Shown here piece after piece: positions 20,816 to 44,335 of a DNA stretch of 64,000 nucleotides. The notes below the pieces were generated by a model. It was given only the letters and a program-made list of their open reading frames with translations, was not told where the DNA came from and did not search any database. This DNA is from Escherichia coli. Its GTDB lineage: Bacteria; Pseudomonadota; Gammaproteobacteria; Enterobacterales; Enterobacteriaceae. The position numbers and the translations under genes were made by a program. Position 1 is the stretch's first letter; every line of letters begins with the position of its first letter. The DNA is taken from assembly GCF_041248615.1 (NCBI RefSeq), contig NZ_CP158426.1, one strand, 5' to 3'.

Positions 20816-21909
20816 TAACGTCCCTCAAAATCTATACGCGGATCGACCAGCGTATAGCTGATATCACTGACAATATTCAGCAGCAGGCCAATCAGGGTGA
20901 AAATATACAAGGTACCAAACATTACAGGATAATCGCGCGAGACGGTCGCTTCGTAGCCCAGTAAGCCAAGACCATTGAGTGAAAACATCACCTCAATCAG
21001 CAGCGAGCCGGTAAAAAACATGCTGATAAACGTCGCCGGAAAACCGGCAATCACCAGCAGCATGGCGTTGCGGAACACATGTTTCCAGAGAATATTTTTT
21101 TCACTTACCCCTTTCGCACGGGCGGTCACCACGTATTGCTTGCGCACTTCATCAAGGAATGAGTTTTTTGTCAGCATGGTCAGCGCCGCAAAGCCGCCAA
21201 TCACTGTCGCCAGCACCGGCAGCGTGATATGCCACAGATAATCGGTGATTTTCTGATACCACGGCAGCGAATCAAAGTTAGCGGAAACCAGGCCGCGTAG
21301 AGGGAACAGGTCGAAATAGCTGCCGCCCGCGAAGAAGACAATCAGCAGGATGGCAAACAAAAAGGCCGGAATGGCGTAGCCGATGATGATAAATGCGCTA
21401 CTCCAGACGTCAAAGCGGCTCCCATTATAAACAGCTTTGCGAATGCCTAACGGAATCGACACCAGATAGATAATCAGCGTGCTCCACAATCCGAGGGTGA
21501 TGGAAACCGGCAGACTGTCTTTAATCAGCGTCAGCACCGAGGCGCTGCGAAACAGGCTATCGCCAAAATCAAAGCGGATGTAGTCCCAGAGCATTTTGAA
21601 GTAACGTTCGTGGATCGGCTTATCGAAACCGTAGCGATGAGTGATCTCGGCGATCACTTCTGGATCTAATCCGCGTCCGCCACGGTAATTACTGTCGCTG
21701 ATATTGCCGACGCCCGTTTGCGCATGGCTGGCGCGAACACCTTCACCGCCTGCGCCGGGTAATACTCCGGCATTACCAAACTCAATGGCGGCGATGGCCT
21801 GGTCGACCGGACCGCCAGGCGCAATTTGCACGATGAAAAAGTTGATAGTGATAATCGCCCATAACGTTGGGATCACCAGCAACAGACGGCGAATCAGATA
21901 AGCGCCCAT
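20815..21909 (-). CDS. yejB: Peptide ABC transporter permease YejB
   Basis: 364-aa ORF, polytopic. Confidence 0.92.
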
Positions 21910-36368: not shown

Positions 36369-36378
36369 TAAAAGGTGT

Positions 36379-36409
36379 GTTGCAGGGCAGAAATTTTCTG
36401 CCCTGCAAC
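36379..36409 (+). terminator. Perfect 14-bp hairpin after fruA (probable terminator)
   Basis: GTTGCAGGGCAGAAATTTTCTGCCCTGCAAC, weak U-tract. Confidence 0.6.
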
Positions 36410-36524
36410 ATTTGATGCGCGCAAAGAGAATGACCGGTTTGTGAATGTAATTTTATGAATTTAAATGGTTTTATCTTTTAGTGGAAACCTGAAACTTTCA
36501 TCAAACACTAAGGTTATTTCCTCA

Positions 36525-36553
36525 AGGGCAGATTAATTTCTGCCCTTTTTTAT
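36525..36553 (+). terminator. Second intrinsic terminator in fruA-psuK spacer
   Basis: AGGGCAGATTAATTTCTGCCCTTTTTTATT. Confidence 0.7.
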
Positions 36554-36791
36554 TGTTCCTGTTCTGTGCATCCCGTCACAAATTCTCCGTTTTTATAATT
36601 CAGGCATTTAATCGCGTTTTGTGAGCCTGCTCAAATCTGCCCATTTTGCCTCTCTGGCGGTAATTTACTTTACGTAAAACATGCATACTATGAGCACATG
36701 TTTAAATATGAACACATGTTTAAACCATCTTTGCAGTATCTATATTCTTGTGGATTGACAGGATTGGTAATTTTTTACCAGAGGACGTGCT

Positions 36792-37733
36792 ATGCGCGAA
36801 AAGGATTATGTCGTAATTATAGGTTCGGCGAATATTGATGTCGCCGGATATTCACATGAATCATTAAATTATGCGGATTCAAATCCAGGTAAAATAAAAT
36901 TTACGCCTGGTGGAGTAGGGCGCAATATTGCACAAAACCTGGCGTTGCTGGGGAATAAAGCCTGGCTACTGAGCGCAGTAGGAAGTGATTTTTATGGTCA
37001 ATCGTTGCTAACGCAAACAAATCAATCTGGTGTTTATGTCGATAAATGCCTGATTGTGCCGGGAGAAAATACGTCGAGCTATTTATCATTACTCGATAAT
37101 ACCGGTGAAATGCTGGTTGCTATAAATGACATGAATATTAGCAACGCTATTACAGCTGAATATCTCGCACAGCACCGTGAATTTATTCAGAGGGCAAAGG
37201 TCATTGTCGCAGACTGTAATATCAGTGAAGAGGCACTGGCATGGATTCTGGATAATGCTGCCAACGTACCCGTATTTGTCGATCCGGTTTCAGCGTGGAA
37301 ATGTGTCAAAGTGCGCGACCGTCTAAATCAGATCCACACTCTCAAGCCAAACCGCCTTGAAGCGGAAACCCTGAGTGGGATTGCGCTGTCAGGGCGTGAA
37401 GATGTGGCAAAAGTTGCTGCCTGGTTCCATCAACATGGCCTGAACCGACTGGTATTGAGCATGGGCGGCGACGGCGTTTATTACAGTGATATCAGCGGTG
37501 AAAGTGGTTGGTCTGCGCCGATCAAAACCAATGTCATTAATGTTACCGGAGCGGGCGATGCCATGATGGCGGGACTTGCTTCGTGTTGGGTAGACGGAAT
37601 GCCGTTTGCCGAATCTGTTCGTTTCGCACAGGGATGTTCGTCAATGGCGCTCTCCTGTGAATACACCAATAACCCCGATTTATCGATTGCCAACGTTATA
37701 TCGTTAGTGGAGAACGCAGAATGTCTGAATTAA
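36792..37733 (+). CDS. psuK: Pseudouridine kinase PsuK (YeiC; pfkB family)
   Basis: 313-aa ORF. Confidence 0.92.
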   Translation: MREKDYVVIIGSANIDVAGYSHESLNYADSNPGKIKFTPGGVGRNIAQNLALLGNKAWLLSAVGSDFYGQSLLTQTNQSGVYVDKCLIVPGENTSSYLSLLDNTGEMLVAINDMNISNAITAEYLAQHREFIQRAKVIVADCNISEEALAWILDNAANVPVFVDPVSAWKCVKVRDRLNQIHTLKPNRLEAETLSGIALSGREDVAKVAAWFHQHGLNRLVLSMGGDGVYYSDISGESGWSAPIKTNVINVTGAGDAMMAGLASCWVDGMPFAESVRFAQGCSSMALSCEYTNNPDLSIANVISLVENAECLN

Positions 37734-38659
37734 AAATTTCCCCTGAATTATTACAAATTTCCCCGGAAGTGCAGGACGCTTTAAAAAACAAAAAACCGAT
37801 CGTGGCGCTGGAATCGACCATTATTTCTCACGGGATGCCGTTCCCACAAAATGCCCAGACCGCAATTGAAGTTGAAGAAACTATTCGTAAACAGGGCGCT
37901 GTACCTGCCACTATCGCCATTATTGGCGGCGTGATGAAAGTGGGTTTAAGCAAAGAAGAAATTGAATTGCTGGGTCGTGAAGGGCATAACGTGACCAAAG
38001 TTAGTCGTCGCGATTTACCTTTTGTTGTTGCCGCAGGGAAAAATGGCGCAACCACCGTTGCTTCAACGATGATTATTGCGGCGATTGCCGGAATTAAAGT
38101 ATTTGCCACTGGGGGAATTGGTGGAGTGCATCGCGGGGCGGAACATACCTTCGATATTTCTGCCGATTTGCAAGAGCTGGCAAATACTAATGTCACCGTT
38201 GTTTGTGCCGGGGCGAAATCTATTCTCGATTTAGGATTAACCACTGAGTATTTAGAAACTTTCGGTGTACCGCTAATTGGCTATCAGACCAAAGCGCTGC
38301 CTGCGTTTTTCTGCCGCACCAGCCCGTTTGACGTCAGCATTCGTCTCGACAGCGCCAGCGAAATTGCCCGTGCAATGGCGGTGAAATGGCAAAGCGGGCT
38401 GAACGGTGGCCTGGTGGTGGCAAATCCGATCCCGGAACAGTTTGCGATGCCGGAGGAATCTATCAATGCAGCCATAGATCAAGCCGTTGCCGAAGCCGAA
38501 GAGCAGGGCGTTATTGGTAAAGAAAGCACACCGTTCCTGCTGGCTCGTGTTGCTGAACTGACTGGCGGTGACAGCCTGAAATCCAACATCCAACTGGTGT
38601 TCAACAACGCCATTCTGGCGAGCGAAATTGCCAAAGAATACCAGCGTCTCGCGGGTTAA
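37721..38659 (+). CDS. psuG: Pseudouridine-5'-phosphate glycosidase PsuG (YeiN)
   Basis: 312-aa ORF; 13-nt overlap with psuK. Confidence 0.92.
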   Translation: MSELKISPELLQISPEVQDALKNKKPIVALESTIISHGMPFPQNAQTAIEVEETIRKQGAVPATIAIIGGVMKVGLSKEEIELLGREGHNVTKVSRRDLPFVVAAGKNGATTVASTMIIAAIAGIKVFATGGIGGVHRGAEHTFDISADLQELANTNVTVVCAGAKSILDLGLTTEYLETFGVPLIGYQTKALPAFFCRTSPFDVSIRLDSASEIARAMAVKWQSGLNGGLVVANPIPEQFAMPEESINAAIDQAVAEAEEQGVIGKESTPFLLARVAELTGGDSLKSNIQLVFNNAILASEIAKEYQRLAG

Positions 38660-38752: not shown

Positions 38753-40003
38753 ATGGATATAATGAGAAGTGTTGTGGGGATGGTGGTGTTACTGGCAATA
38801 GCATTTCTGTTGTCAGTGAATAAAAAGAGCATCAGTTTGCGCACGGTTGGAGCCGCGCTGCTGCTACAAATCGCCATTGGCGGCATCATGCTCTATTTTC
38901 CACCAGGAAAATGGGCGGTAGAGCAGGCGGCATTAGGCGTTCATAAAGTGATGTCTTACAGTGATGCCGGTAGCGCCTTTATTTTTGGTTCATTGGTCGG
39001 GCCGAAAATGGATGTCCTGTTTGATGGCGCGGGCTTTATCTTCGCCTTTCGCGTACTCCCGGCGATTATCTTCGTCACTGCGCTCATCAGCCTGCTGTAC
39101 TACATTGGCGTGATGGGGCTGCTAATCCGCATTCTTGGCAGTATTTTTCAGAAAGCCCTCAACATCAGCAAAATCGAATCTTTTGTTGCGGTTACCACTA
39201 TTTTCCTCGGGCAAAATGAGATCCCGGCGATCGTAAAACCGTTTATCGATCGCATGAATCGCAACGAGCTATTTACGGCAATTTGTAGCGGGATGGCGTC
39301 CATTGCCGGTTCGATGATGATTGGTTATGCCGGAATGGGCGTACCAATTGACTACCTGTTAGCGGCATCGCTGATGGCGATCCCTGGTGGTATTTTGTTT
39401 GCACGTATTCTTAGCCCGGCCACCGAGCCTTCGCAGGTCACATTTGAAAATCTGTCGTTCAGCGAAACGCCGCCAAAAAGCTTTATCGAAGCGGCGGCGA
39501 GCGGTGCGATGACCGGGCTCAAAATCGCCGCTGGTGTAGCGACGGTGGTAATGGCGTTTGTCGCAATTATTGCGCTGATCAACGGCATTATCGGCGGAAT
39601 TGGCGGCTGGTTTGGTTTCGCCAATGCCTCTCTGGAAAGTATTTTTGGCTATGTGCTGGCACCGCTGGCGTGGATCATGGGTGTGGACTGGAGTGATGCC
39701 AACCTGGCGGGTAGCCTGATTGGGCAGAAACTGGCGATTAACGAATTCGTCGCTTACCTGAGTTTCTCCCCATACCTGCAAACGGGCGGCACGCTGGAAG
39801 CGAAAACCATTGCGATTATCTCCTTTGCGCTTTGTGGTTTTGCTAACTTTGGTTCTATCGGTGTTGTCGTTGGGGCATTTTCGGCTATTTCGCCAAAACG
39901 TGCTCCGGAAATCGCTCAGCTTGGTTTAAGGGCGCTGGCAGCAGCAACGCTTTCCAACCTGATGAGCGCGACCATTGCCGGGTTCTTTATTGGTTTAGCT
40001 TGA
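38753..40003 (+). CDS. psuT: NupC-family nucleoside transporter PsuT (YeiM)
   Basis: 416-aa polytopic ORF. Confidence 0.92.
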   Translation: MDIMRSVVGMVVLLAIAFLLSVNKKSISLRTVGAALLLQIAIGGIMLYFPPGKWAVEQAALGVHKVMSYSDAGSAFIFGSLVGPKMDVLFDGAGFIFAFRVLPAIIFVTALISLLYYIGVMGLLIRILGSIFQKALNISKIESFVAVTTIFLGQNEIPAIVKPFIDRMNRNELFTAICSGMASIAGSMMIGYAGMGVPIDYLLAASLMAIPGGILFARILSPATEPSQVTFENLSFSETPPKSFIEAAASGAMTGLKIAAGVATVVMAFVAIIALINGIIGGIGGWFGFANASLESIFGYVLAPLAWIMGVDWSDANLAGSLIGQKLAINEFVAYLSFSPYLQTGGTLEAKTIAIISFALCGFANFGSIGVVVGAFSAISPKRAPEIAQLGLRALAAATLSNLMSATIAGFFIGLA

Positions 40004-40071: not shown

Positions 40072-40731
40072 TTACTGCATCATCCCGGAGAATTTATTCT
40101 CCGGGTCCATCTCCAGCGCCAGTCCTGACAACTGCTTTCTGTTTTTAATTAGATATCCTTTCTTGCTTTTAATTAATAAACCGTCGTGAATGAATTGCGC
40201 GAGAACATATAAAAGATGTCGATAAGAAACGCCTAAATACTCTGCCGCTTGCGTATGCTTTTCGTGATAAAGATCACCTTCTTGTGAGAGTAATATAAAA
40301 GCTGCCAGGCGATTCACTAACGGAAATGATTGATTCTGAGTTAAAGAAACAATATTGCGATAATTTTTATGGCTTAAACTAACGCAGAGTTTTCGTAAAA
40401 ATAGTGTGTCGTTTAATAACAGCGGGCGGTAATGTTTCATAGGGAGCGCAAGACACCAACACTCTTCAATAGCCTGTACCGCACGCGGTTCATGGTCTTT
40501 ATCTATTAACTCAATCTCACCAATAAAACAGGGGGCGGCAAAGAAATCGATCAGCGACACGCGACCATTAGCTAGCGTGGCGTAAAGCCTGGCGCGGCCT
40601 CGCGTCAGGTAAAACAGCCAGGACGGCTGTTGCCCTTCCTGCACAATGTAGTCACGCGCTAAAAAATGAAACAACCGCGTATCGGCTGAAACATCCGTTG
40701 AAAAGCAATCCTTAAACGCGGATTCACTCAT
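40072..40731 (-). CDS. yeiL: CRP/FNR-family transcriptional regulator YeiL
   Basis: 219 aa from ATG at 40731 ([10 protein letters not shown]...); ORF extends 13 codons upstream. Confidence 0.88.
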
Positions 40732-40899
40732 CAATTGCTGCTTAAGATCATTATTGTGGATTTCTTTCACGATGTTTATCCGCTATGAGATTTCTCATAT
40801 TTAGCATACGTACGCTGTTGTTAAGATTCAATCATCGGCCCGGTCGAATTTTCTTTGCTGTAGAAAAAATAACGCAACTGGAAACAGAGGAAATAAACA

Positions 40900-43246: not shown

Positions 43247-44335
43247 TTACACCATCGGCACTAATGAAAGCGCGTTATCGGCAGACAGGGTAGGGTTGTT
43301 TAAGCTGCCGCTGGCGCGTGAAATTGCCGCGCAGGCCATCGCAAAACGGGCGCTGTCACGGAAATTGTTTCCCTCCAGAAAGCTATATACCAGGCCCGCC
43401 ATAAAACCATCGTCAGCACCAAAACTGTCTACTGTCGTATGCGCTGGCGCTGTCAGCAAAAATTGCTCTCCATTCTTTTCGCTGCAATAAACTGACTCAT
43501 CGGGCAAATAAACAAACAGTTGCTGAACGCCTTGCTGATGCAACGCATTCACTGCGGTATTACGGTCAGCATCGCTGGTGATCGCCTGTCCCCATAAAAT
43601 TTCCAGCTCCGGTAAAGTGGGTTTCAGGGTGTGAATATGCGCCAGCCAGTGTTTGATTTTGCCCGCTTTGAATTCTGAAACGGTATCGACAAACACCGGG
43701 ATTTCATCAGCGAGGGTAAAGACCCACTCCAGCGCCTCGGCTGTCAGGTTGCAATCAGCCAGTACCACGCCCGCATGACGAAGTAAATCGCGCGACCCGT
43801 TCAGTAGTTGCGGTGTCAACTGATCCAGCAGATGGGTATCGTTAATCGCCAGCACGATTTGATCGTCTCGATTGGCAATTGCCAGATACGTCGATGTGCT
43901 TTGACCATGTAAACGAACGCAGCCGGAGACATTCACGCCGGCGCGGCGCGTTTCTTCCAGGAGCATTTCGCCATAAAAGTCATCGCCAATCACTGAAAGC
44001 AAATGGACGTCGCGGCCTAACAGCGCCAGATTGTGGGCGATATTGCGTCCAACGCCGCCTGCCGAGCAATGAATTGTACCGGGATGAGAAGCCGCTTGCG
44101 GGTAACGGATATCCGCCATCCCGCGAATATCCATATTGATTGTCCCCACCACTACGCAGTATTCCTGCTCGGTGAGAATGTAACCTTTGCCTTTAATCCG
44201 GCCTTTGCGCATTAAATCCATAATATGCGCCGCAACGCGCGAACGGCTGATTTGCAGCATATCCGCAATTTCGTTCTGCTGAATCAGCGGGTTACGCCGT
44301 AAAATTGCAAGGATCTCCTTCTCCCGGTTGTTCAT
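43247..44335 (-). CDS. yeiI: HTH + pfkB-family sugar/nucleoside kinase-like protein YeiI
   Basis: 362 aa; N-terminal ~60-aa HTH-like segment, then pfkB domain homologous to PsuK (GGVGRNIA, HTLKP). Confidence 0.9.
   Translation of the reverse strand: MNNREKEILAILRRNPLIQQNEIADMLQISRSRVAAHIMDLMRKGRIKGKGYILTEQEYCVVVGTINMDIRGMADIRYPQAASHPGTIHCSAGGVGRNIAHNLALLGRDVHLLSVIGDDFYGEMLLEETRRAGVNVSGCVRLHGQSTSTYLAIANRDDQIVLAINDTHLLDQLTPQLLNGSRDLLRHAGVVLADCNLTAEALEWVFTLADEIPVFVDTVSEFKAGKIKHWLAHIHTLKPTLPELEILWGQAITSDADRNTAVNALHQQGVQQLFVYLPDESVYCSEKNGEQFLLTAPAHTTVDSFGADDGFMAGLVYSFLEGNNFRDSARFAMACAAISRASGSLNNPTLSADNALSLVPMV

Follow-up and report, generated by a model that had tools for sequence, protein, structure and literature searches.

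Upstream of psuK, the first gene of the pseudouridine salvage operon psuK-psuG-psuT, the 64,000-nucleotide stretch of Escherichia coli DNA analysed here (the window) carries two 12-bp palindromic boxes, 18 bp apart, which very probably form a conserved cis-regulatory two-box element, as their recurrence across genera indicates. Dimers of YeiI, a protein in which a winged helix-turn-helix (HTH) domain is fused to a PfkB-type kinase domain, are predicted from gene linkage and protein sequence to bind these boxes and repress psuKGT until pseudouridine releases them, a reading to which we assign a probability of roughly 0.6. A wider proposal, which we regard as an even bet on the same comparative grounds, is that YeiI is a pseudouridine-sensing repressor built on the PfkB fold, descended from an enzyme-autorepressor (an HTH-fused pseudouridine kinase, here HTH-PsuK) whose two roles were divided by gene duplication, and that the twin boxes at psuK are its operator.

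The preliminary description of this DNA had pointed to an exact 12-bp direct repeat about 70 bp upstream of psuK, beginning at 36696 and with 17 bp between the centres of its copies. The 12-mer, CACATGTTTAAA, does occur exactly twice in the window, and the second copy ends 68 bp before the psuK ATG (36792); the copies, however, lie at 36695-36706 and 36713-36724, the first starting one base earlier than had been given, and are 18 bp apart both start-to-start and centre-to-centre. A repeat search places them in a gapless head-to-tail tandem of two plus-strand 18-bp units, TATGAGCACATGTTTAAA (36689-36706) and TATGAACACATGTTTAAA (36707-36724), which are identical at 17 of 18 positions (TRF score 65). 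Each unit holds one box, located by cross-genus alignment and motif scan: O1, GAGCA-CA-TGTTT (36692-36703), in unit 1 and, 18 bp further on, O2, GAACA-CA-TGTTT (36710-36721), in unit 2, with two mismatches and one mismatch, respectively, to the motif AAACANNTGTTT. The alignment also reveals a possible third box, uncertain and only half formed, AAACA-TG-CATAC (36677-36688); its AAAACA is invariant in the Enterobacteriaceae, and it lies 15 bp before O1, outside the 18-bp register.

Under a first-order Markov model, 0.135 exact repeats of at least 12 bp within 30 bp are expected per 64-kb window, against two seen, so that the repeat by itself is just mildly unusual and it is conservation that makes the case. 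The sole other exact 12-mer close direct repeat in the window is AAGCGTGCCGGA at 5218 and 5234, 16 bp apart (5218-5245). A search of the window for further copies of the 12-mer returned only the pair at psuK, and the intergenic DNA near yeiL, rihB, nupX, yeiI and nfo holds no other copy of the 12-mer or of the box. The sequence GGAACACATGTTTCCA at 21072-21087, which has the core of O2, falls within a minus-strand open reading frame (ORF) of 364 aa and probably matches by chance.

Within E. coli, we compared the region by megablast with a complete-genome collection (5426 genomes for the spacer). The 423-bp spacer between fruA and psuK (36369-36791) is 100% identical to that of E. coli isolate 362 (NZ_OW967178) and 95.3% identical to that of K-12; as a whole, it reaches at least 99% identity to the window in only 7 genomes and falls at 90-95% in 1790. 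Across eight diverse strains, the spacer varies at many positions, whereas a 64-bp block containing the repeat (36663-36726) is invariant. Among the 4212 E. coli genomes that have this block, 3708 (88%) are 100% identical to it, while the intergenic DNA around it differs by 5-10%. No part of the spacer is better conserved than this block, whose identity amid diverging surroundings indicates purifying selection. At least 80% of the block, with both units, is covered in 4206 of the 4212 genomes, and the repeat does not behave as a variable-number tandem repeat: a single-unit block occurs in one engineered strain. This strain, E. coli UC4316, a lambda-Red-engineered derivative of Shiga toxin-producing E. 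coli, has lost exactly one 18-bp unit (equivalent to 36695-36712), probably by spontaneous slippage; with a single box left, it is a ready-made one-operator variant. Two further strains are rearranged nearby. In 2017.06.04CC, IS1 is inserted after window position 36741, between O2 and psuK, and in ER1709 only 36732-36791 matches, adjoining fruB, a layout that suggests a deletion ending just past the boxes.

About 1200 of the 5426 genomes (approximately 22%) give no megablast match to the fruA-psuK spacer. SF-166, the one of these that was examined, carries a divergent, E. albertii-like haplotype in which O1 reads GAACATGTGTTT and O2 reads GAACACGTGCTC followed by TAAT; judging from such sequences, the region exists in E. 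coli as two deeply diverged haplotypes. The SF-166 region also contains a REP-like (repetitive extragenic palindrome) insert and only a remnant of nupX, and yeiI is just 80-90% identical to that of the window in 2012 of 5422 genomes (85% at the protein level in SF-166). The haplotype with the exact 12-mer repeat extends to three cryptic Escherichia clades. Exact identity of the 12-mers is absent from the approximately 22% of E. coli genomes mentioned above and from E. albertii, Citrobacter, Salmonella and Enterobacter, where the second box is degenerate. The O1 and O2 sequences of the SF-166 type thus confine the exact repeat to one Escherichia haplotype, the other keeping two boxes without it, and from these alignments the near-identity of the E. 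coli units appears to be a recent, lineage-specific homogenisation of two older boxes. Degeneracy in close orthologous promoters, which the preliminary description had named as a ground for refutation, accordingly gives a divided answer: the literal repeat is degenerate in close orthologs, but the two-box architecture is kept.

Across genera, the conserved element is a 12-bp palindromic box, rAACA-NN-TGTTy, present in two copies 18-19 bp apart. We aligned loci anchored on PsuK (Citrobacter, Buttiauxella, E. albertii and a metagenome-assembled genome (MAG) labelled Raoultella) or on YeiI (Enterobacter and Salmonella), and the alignment is gapless from a CRP-like site (36620-36635) through O2 in Escherichia, Citrobacter, Buttiauxella, Enterobacter and Salmonella. 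The O1 orthologs are perfect 5-2-5 palindromes in Salmonella (AAACATATGTTT), Enterobacter (AAACAGATGTTT), Buttiauxella, Yersinia (the distal box) and Shewanella (the second box). The right half of O2 is degenerate (TGCTC-TAAT) in the Enterobacteriaceae other than Escherichia and in the SF-166 haplotype; the second box of E. albertii is a perfect GAACATATGTTC. Upstream of the Shewanella psu operon, TTAAACAAAAGTTTGC and the perfect palindrome GCAAACATATGTTTGC lie 19 bp apart, and the box pair recurs in Aliivibrio (19 bp apart), in Pasteurella (18 bp) and in Yersinia and Serratia (18 bp), where 5 nt separate its end from the true start codon, which corresponds to the second Met of the ORF as called. 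The central dinucleotide of the box is free. The palindromic core ACATGT, to which attention had been drawn at the outset, is indeed present in each E. coli copy, but it is incidental: its axis is 1 bp off that of the box, and it is missing from the orthologous boxes in Salmonella, Enterobacter, Yersinia and Shewanella. The TTTAAA of unit 2 is likewise not conserved.

To quantify this pattern, we scanned psu upstream DNA and other flanking DNA for AAACANNTGTTT, allowing at most one mismatch, and found 14 matches in 4.2 kb of the former against 14 in 196 kb of the latter (Poisson 4e-19). Four loci fetched after the motif had been fixed all match, with 5 hits against 0.09 expected (P=5e-8). Of 13 psu upstream regions, 11 contain a pair of boxes at a distance of 18-19 bp, as does Affinibrenneria, whereas 214 kb of other flanking DNA contain none; by genus, a pair precedes the psu operon in 10 of 12 genera of the Gammaproteobacteria. 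Because each box is itself a palindrome, one dimer would be expected per box and two per pair. Comparative genomics supports the earlier suggestion of a tandem operator for an undescribed dimeric regulator, with the amendment that the unit is a palindrome and not a direct-repeat half-site. Yersinia, Serratia and Xenorhabdus additionally have a single extra box about 250 bp upstream of HTH-psuK, with a CRP-like site approximately 72 bp further up, and their leaders have the motifs CTTACGATC and CTTTACT in common; this distal box may be a second promoter/operator or part of a structured leader.

The genes of the window run in the order fruB-fruK-fruA, the 423-bp spacer, psuK, psuG, psuT, yeiL (minus strand), rihB, nupX, yeiI (minus strand) and nfo. 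On the plus strand, psuK (36792-37733) encodes the pseudouridine kinase, a PfkB protein without an HTH domain, psuG (37721-38659) the pseudouridine-5'-phosphate glycosidase and psuT (38753-40003) a nucleoside transporter. Both yeiI (43247-44335) and yeiL (40072-40770), the latter encoding a regulator assigned by Pfam to the CRP/FNR family, had been named as candidates for the cognate regulator, and gene linkage favours YeiI, not YeiL. In all 12 genera having boxes, there is an HTH_24+PfkB gene, either convergent with psuT or first in the operon; the psuK-psuG-psuT loci of Aeromonas, a Pasteurellaceae MAG and 'Bartonella sp.' contain no HTH-PfkB gene within 6 kb and no box. Boxes accompany the gene in 12 of 12 genera that have it, against 0 of 3 loci without it. 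In the Enterobacteriaceae other than Escherichia, the gene convergent with psuT is yeiI and never yeiL (Affinibrenneria, too, has a convergent yeiI together with the full box architecture), and among the loci sampled only Escherichia has psuT and yeiI separated by an inserted yeiL-rihB-nupX segment. The operons of Yersinia, Serratia, Xenorhabdus, Pasteurella, Shewanella and Aliivibrio lack a separate psuK and begin with the HTH-PfkB gene, which is joined by psuG and usually then by psuT.

No other transcription-factor family is common to the psu neighbourhoods examined, and our literature search found no described link of YeiI, YeiL or any other factor to the psu genes. The genomic SELEX papers report only an RpoS-type peak inside psuG and a constitutive yeiI promoter, and a constitutive RpoD promoter is listed for yeiI (PMC3946193). 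The consensuses of Cra, ArgR, NsrR, OmpR, ArcA and KdgR, compared by eye, were also considered; none fits the spacing plus the conserved positions.

YeiI (362 aa) consists, according to Pfam, of an HTH_24 winged helix (E=1e-10) followed by a PfkB kinase domain. Its homologues are widespread. The protein is uncharacterised (PMC9061257, PMC12506659), and a 2025 paper counts it among the proteins that machine-learning predictors have miscalled as a second pseudouridine kinase. Of the eight pseudouridine-contacting residues listed for PsuK (PMC9061257), YeiI keeps seven (N14, D16, S30, Y97, N112, N143 and K170), with M114 replaced by T; it also keeps K185 and the catalytic D256, and all HTH-PsuKs retain these seven contacts, K185 and D256. 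The GAGD motif, intact in PsuK and in all six HTH-PsuKs, is GADD in YeiI of E. coli (both haplotypes), Enterobacter and Salmonella; by sequence, then, YeiI lacks the intact GAGD anion-hole/catalytic-base motif by which an active PfkB kinase is recognised.

The two domains of YeiI have diverged to different extents. Its HTH domain is 66-72% identical to those of distant HTH-PsuKs (about 70% to that of Yersinia), its kinase domain only 38-47%, and the recognition-helix region, ISRSxVAxHI, is conserved, matching the conserved box. In the kinase domain, PsuK is 60% identical to the Yersinia HTH-PsuK, YeiI is 47% identical to the same protein, and YeiI and PsuK are 38.5% identical to each other; outside the Enterobacteriaceae, the nearest relatives of PsuK are mostly HTH-fused. 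This pattern fits duplication of a bifunctional HTH-PsuK, after which PsuK would have lost the HTH and YeiI would have become a sensor-regulator. PsuK forms a beta-clasp dimer, whose quaternary arrangement changes strongly when pseudouridine binds (PMC9061257); by analogy, it is plausible that a similar change serves as an allosteric switch for the N-terminal HTH domains. No solved structure covers the HTH domain of YeiI, and we found no characterised transcription factor of the winged HTH-PfkB architecture.

The position of the boxes relative to the promoters bears on the sign of regulation. The inferred main promoter, P1 (36664-36691, plus strand), consists of a -35 element TTTACT (36664-36669), N16 and a -10 element TACTAT (36686-36691), an 8/12 match; its homologue in SF-166 and E. 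albertii, TTTACA-N16-TATTAT (10/12), adjoins box 1. The start predicted for P1, at approximately 36698, falls inside O1, which would place O2 at about +13 to +24. The CRP-like site TGTGAgcctgcTCAAA (36620-36635), identified by alignment and centred at 36627.5, is about -70.5 from this start, which we take to be a class I position, and in every member of the Enterobacteriaceae sampled it keeps a constant distance to the boxes, with no alignment gap in between. The psu operons of Pasteurella, Yersinia and Xenorhabdus are likewise preceded by CRP-like sites. An alternative promoter-like sequence, P2 (36719-36746, plus strand), has its -35 element, TTTAAA, in the flank of O2, followed by N16 and the -10 element TATATT (9/12). 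P2 is specific to the main Escherichia haplotype, and an 11-bp deletion in one Escherichia clade breaks its spacing.

Beyond the Enterobacteriaceae, in Pasteurella, Yersinia, Serratia and Aliivibrio, the boxes are flanked by the promoter region on one side and the ATG on the other; in the first three, 4-5 nt separate the end of box 2 from the ATG, and box 2 of Aliivibrio adjoins the Shine-Dalgarno sequence. The distance from O2 to the elements downstream is variable, as the 11-bp deletion also illustrates. Boxes that would cover the predicted P1 start or that reach the ATG, at a variable distance from what follows, fit repression by occlusion or roadblock. That PsuG varies by up to log2 -6 in proteomes (PMC11039860) implies tight switching of the operon. 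Together with the classical SOS proteins, PsuG and PsuK belong to the proteins whose levels fall most in recA mutants under ciprofloxacin, with log2 fold changes down to -6 (PMC11039860). LexA control, which this drop brings to mind, was rejected, as inspection of 36369-36791 and of the orthologous promoters showed no E. coli LexA box (CTGT-N8-ACAG); the dependence on RecA is probably indirect and may arise through RNA breakdown that frees pseudouridine.

In the mechanism that we propose, YeiI dimers would bind the paired boxes at the psuK-psuG-psuT promoter. The boxes would lie over or just past the likely P1 start and overlap the -35 element of P2, so that their occupancy should block RNA polymerase and thereby repress the operon. 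Pseudouridine, or its 5'-phosphate, lodged in the conserved kinase pocket would alter the quaternary shape of the dimer, as in PsuK, and the DNA would be released, with the CRP-like site approximately 70 bp upstream adding catabolite control. In Yersinia, Serratia, Xenorhabdus, Pasteurella, Shewanella and Aliivibrio, where HTH-PsuK is the sole kinase gene found in the operon, this protein would autoregulate its synthesis through the same boxes; in the Enterobacteriaceae, its gene would have been duplicated to give PsuK, the enzyme without the HTH, and YeiI, with the HTH kept and GAGD changed to GADD.

Several observations weigh against repression by YeiI. The P1 of the window is weak, and a promoter scan flags only P2 on the plus strand; with P2 as the real promoter, the boxes would be centred near -37 and -55, where activators, too, typically bind. 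The 18-bp spacing puts the two dimers on different faces of the helix, and the glycine-to-aspartate change in YeiI could affect ligand binding as well as catalysis. The second box of Salmonella is very degenerate, Xenorhabdus has a single distant box only, and a motif search detected no box upstream of yeiI or nfo in E. coli or Salmonella. The lack of an HTH-PfkB gene in the three control loci, moreover, covers only 6 kb around each locus, and YeiI was assigned as the regulator by gene linkage only. The points concerning P2 would be accommodated if pseudouridine-bound YeiI, acting at the same boxes, activated transcription from P2 in a class-II-like manner; tandem sites adjoining a -35 element are generally typical of activators, and here the flank of O2 is itself the -35 element. 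We consider activation unlikely, since P2 exists in one Escherichia haplotype only, the clade with the 11-bp deletion has lost the spacing between its -35 and -10 elements while keeping the boxes, the CRP-like site would sit at about -125 from P2, and boxes between promoter and ATG, as in the four other genera, make no sense as activator sites.

Binding by a regulator other than YeiI must likewise be weighed. The linkage to yeiI is circumstantial, and the boxes could belong to an unlinked or unconsidered factor, global or local, in all these Gammaproteobacteria, YeiI being a kinase paralogue with a vestigial HTH. The RecA dependence of PsuG and PsuK under ciprofloxacin can be read in this sense, as can the resemblance of the box to the motifs of PrfA (TTAACA-NN-TGTTAA), PsrA ((C/G)AAAC-N2-4-GTTT(G/C)) and Gram-positive LexA (GAAC-N4-GTTC). 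To our knowledge, E. coli has no PrfA, PsrA or Gram-positive-type LexA, and its own LexA box, as noted, is absent from the region. A global regulon is disfavoured by the background frequency of the boxes outside psu promoters; the three psu loci without an HTH-PfkB gene contain none; and an HTH domain more conserved than the kinase domain is unexpected of a vestige. An unlinked factor thus seems to us unlikely. YeiL, whose gene directly follows psuT in E. coli and for which no targets are described in the literature searched, offers a dimer of the CRP/FNR family, and the box, a 5-N2-5 (or 5-N4-5, TGAAC-N4-GTTyA) palindrome, is of a kind with some sites of that family, such as those of PrfA and FNR. 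It is nonetheless a very improbable binder. At least 11 genera combine conserved boxes with a psu neighbourhood free of yeiL. In E. albertii, Citrobacter, Buttiauxella, Enterobacter, Salmonella and Affinibrenneria, yeiI comes directly after psuT and yeiL is missing from the vicinity; from Yersinia through Shewanella, the loci carry boxes and encode no cNMP-binding/HTH_Crp protein nearby. Named YeiL homologues are patchy, with none from those genera among the best 120 hits. In the two Escherichia loci that show the gene next to it, those of the window and of SF-166, yeiL diverges from rihB, a likelier target, and the spacer between these two genes contains no box. YeiL homologues at 58-60% identity occur in several Enterococcus species, which is unusually high across the Gram-negative/Gram-positive divide and suggests horizontal transfer.

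Two remaining explanations dispense with a DNA-binding regulator. The repeat could be a functionless 18-bp slippage duplication, a chance AT-rich repeat or a mere -35/UP-like element. Its units are indeed head-to-tail and nearly identical, like a fresh duplication, one engineered strain has lost exactly one of them, and close exact 12-mer repeats are, at the expectation given above, not vanishingly rare. We give this explanation minimal credence, since both boxes are older than the homogenisation, the pair recurs at 18-19 bp in 10 genera, and the block, the best conserved part of the spacer, is incompletely covered in at most 6 of the 4212 genomes. Alternatively, the repeat might act in RNA, as a hairpin of the 5' untranslated region (5'-UTR) formed by GUUUAAAUAUG and CAUGUUUAAAC and affecting stability or translation. 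An imperfect inverted repeat is present, the single strand folds with -7.2 kcal/mol (z=-2.2), and the region would be transcribed if P1 is used; however, the pairing requires the TTTAAA of unit 2, which is unconserved beyond one haplotype, and the stem is weak and AU-rich, making such a role extremely improbable. Rfam gave no family match, its sole hit being sub-threshold (E=0.77) and located on the fruA terminator.

Other structures of the spacer lie outside the repeat block. A plus-strand stem-loop, TGGTAA-tttt-TTACCA (36765-36780), adjoins the Shine-Dalgarno sequence of psuK (GAGGA, 36781-36785). It shows weak covariation, its arms changing in concert from one genus to another (elsewhere TGGCA/TGCCA, and in E. 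albertii an intermediate with G.U) around a loop of 4-5 nt, and a structured 5'-UTR is a possible reading. The TGGCA-N-TTGC-like palindrome before the Shine-Dalgarno sequence was also considered as a sigma-54 promoter; this was excluded, as its spacing shifts by 1 nt between genera, the E. coli copy is without the GC, and there is no room for a leader. Downstream of fruA, two hairpins 141 bp apart (36378-36410 and 36524-36547) have GGGCAGA...TCTGCCC in common. The first, directly after the fruA stop codon, is a perfect palindrome with 16-nt arms, the second is a T-tailed terminator, and the 113 bp separating them are conserved in E. coli.

Should repression by YeiI prove correct, it would establish the function and the DNA target of YeiI, one of the E. 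coli transcription-factor candidates still uncharacterised, and explain how the pseudouridine salvage operon is switched. It would also provide an example of an enzyme-regulator fusion resolved by duplication into an enzyme and a regulator. Strains are being engineered to produce pseudouridine for mRNA medicines, in papers that describe no sensor; a natural pseudouridine-responsive pair of promoter and regulator would be a ready-made biosensor.

The proposed system resembles several known ones in part. Its boxes share with those of PrfA, PsrA and Gram-positive LexA the AACA/TGTT or GAAC/GTTC palindrome and the same size, but they are confined to psu promoters, and we regard the resemblance as a lead rather than as membership. 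The arrangement recalls, from general knowledge, the operator pairs of lac and gal, with operators over or after the start, an upstream CRP site and a catabolite as inducer (the positions at psuK being inferred); in contrast to these, the psuK boxes are directly adjacent (18 bp) instead of at looping distance, and the regulator is not of the LacI/GalR family. The closest solved relative of the YeiI kinase domain is PsuK/PUKI (PDB 7VTD, 7VVA), which matches residues 55-359 with E=1e-67. The catalytic Asp, the beta-clasp dimer region and the contacts except M114 are conserved in YeiI, which differs in its extra 54-residue winged HTH, in G255D and M114T, and in a kinase domain of 38.5% identity.

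At the level of the regulator, a parallel in logic is offered by the ROK repressors NagC and Mlc, which are generally known to join an N-terminal HTH to a domain homologous to the kinase of their pathway and to act with CRP as local repressors of catabolic or transport operons through palindromic, often paired operators. They are built on the ROK/ASKHA fold, whereas YeiI has the PfkB ribokinase fold; the type of HTH, the box and the ligand also differ, and Pfam shows no sequence relationship between ROK proteins and YeiI. BirA and NadR, in turn, combine an enzyme and an operon-repressing HTH in one polypeptide, as proposed, on sequence, for HTH-PsuK, a protein that keeps GAGD and whose gene is the only one for a kinase in the psu operons of Yersinia, Pasteurella and Shewanella. 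BirA and NadR belong to other enzyme families, and E. coli appears to have distributed the two roles over the paralogues PsuK, which is without the HTH, and YeiI, which carries GADD.

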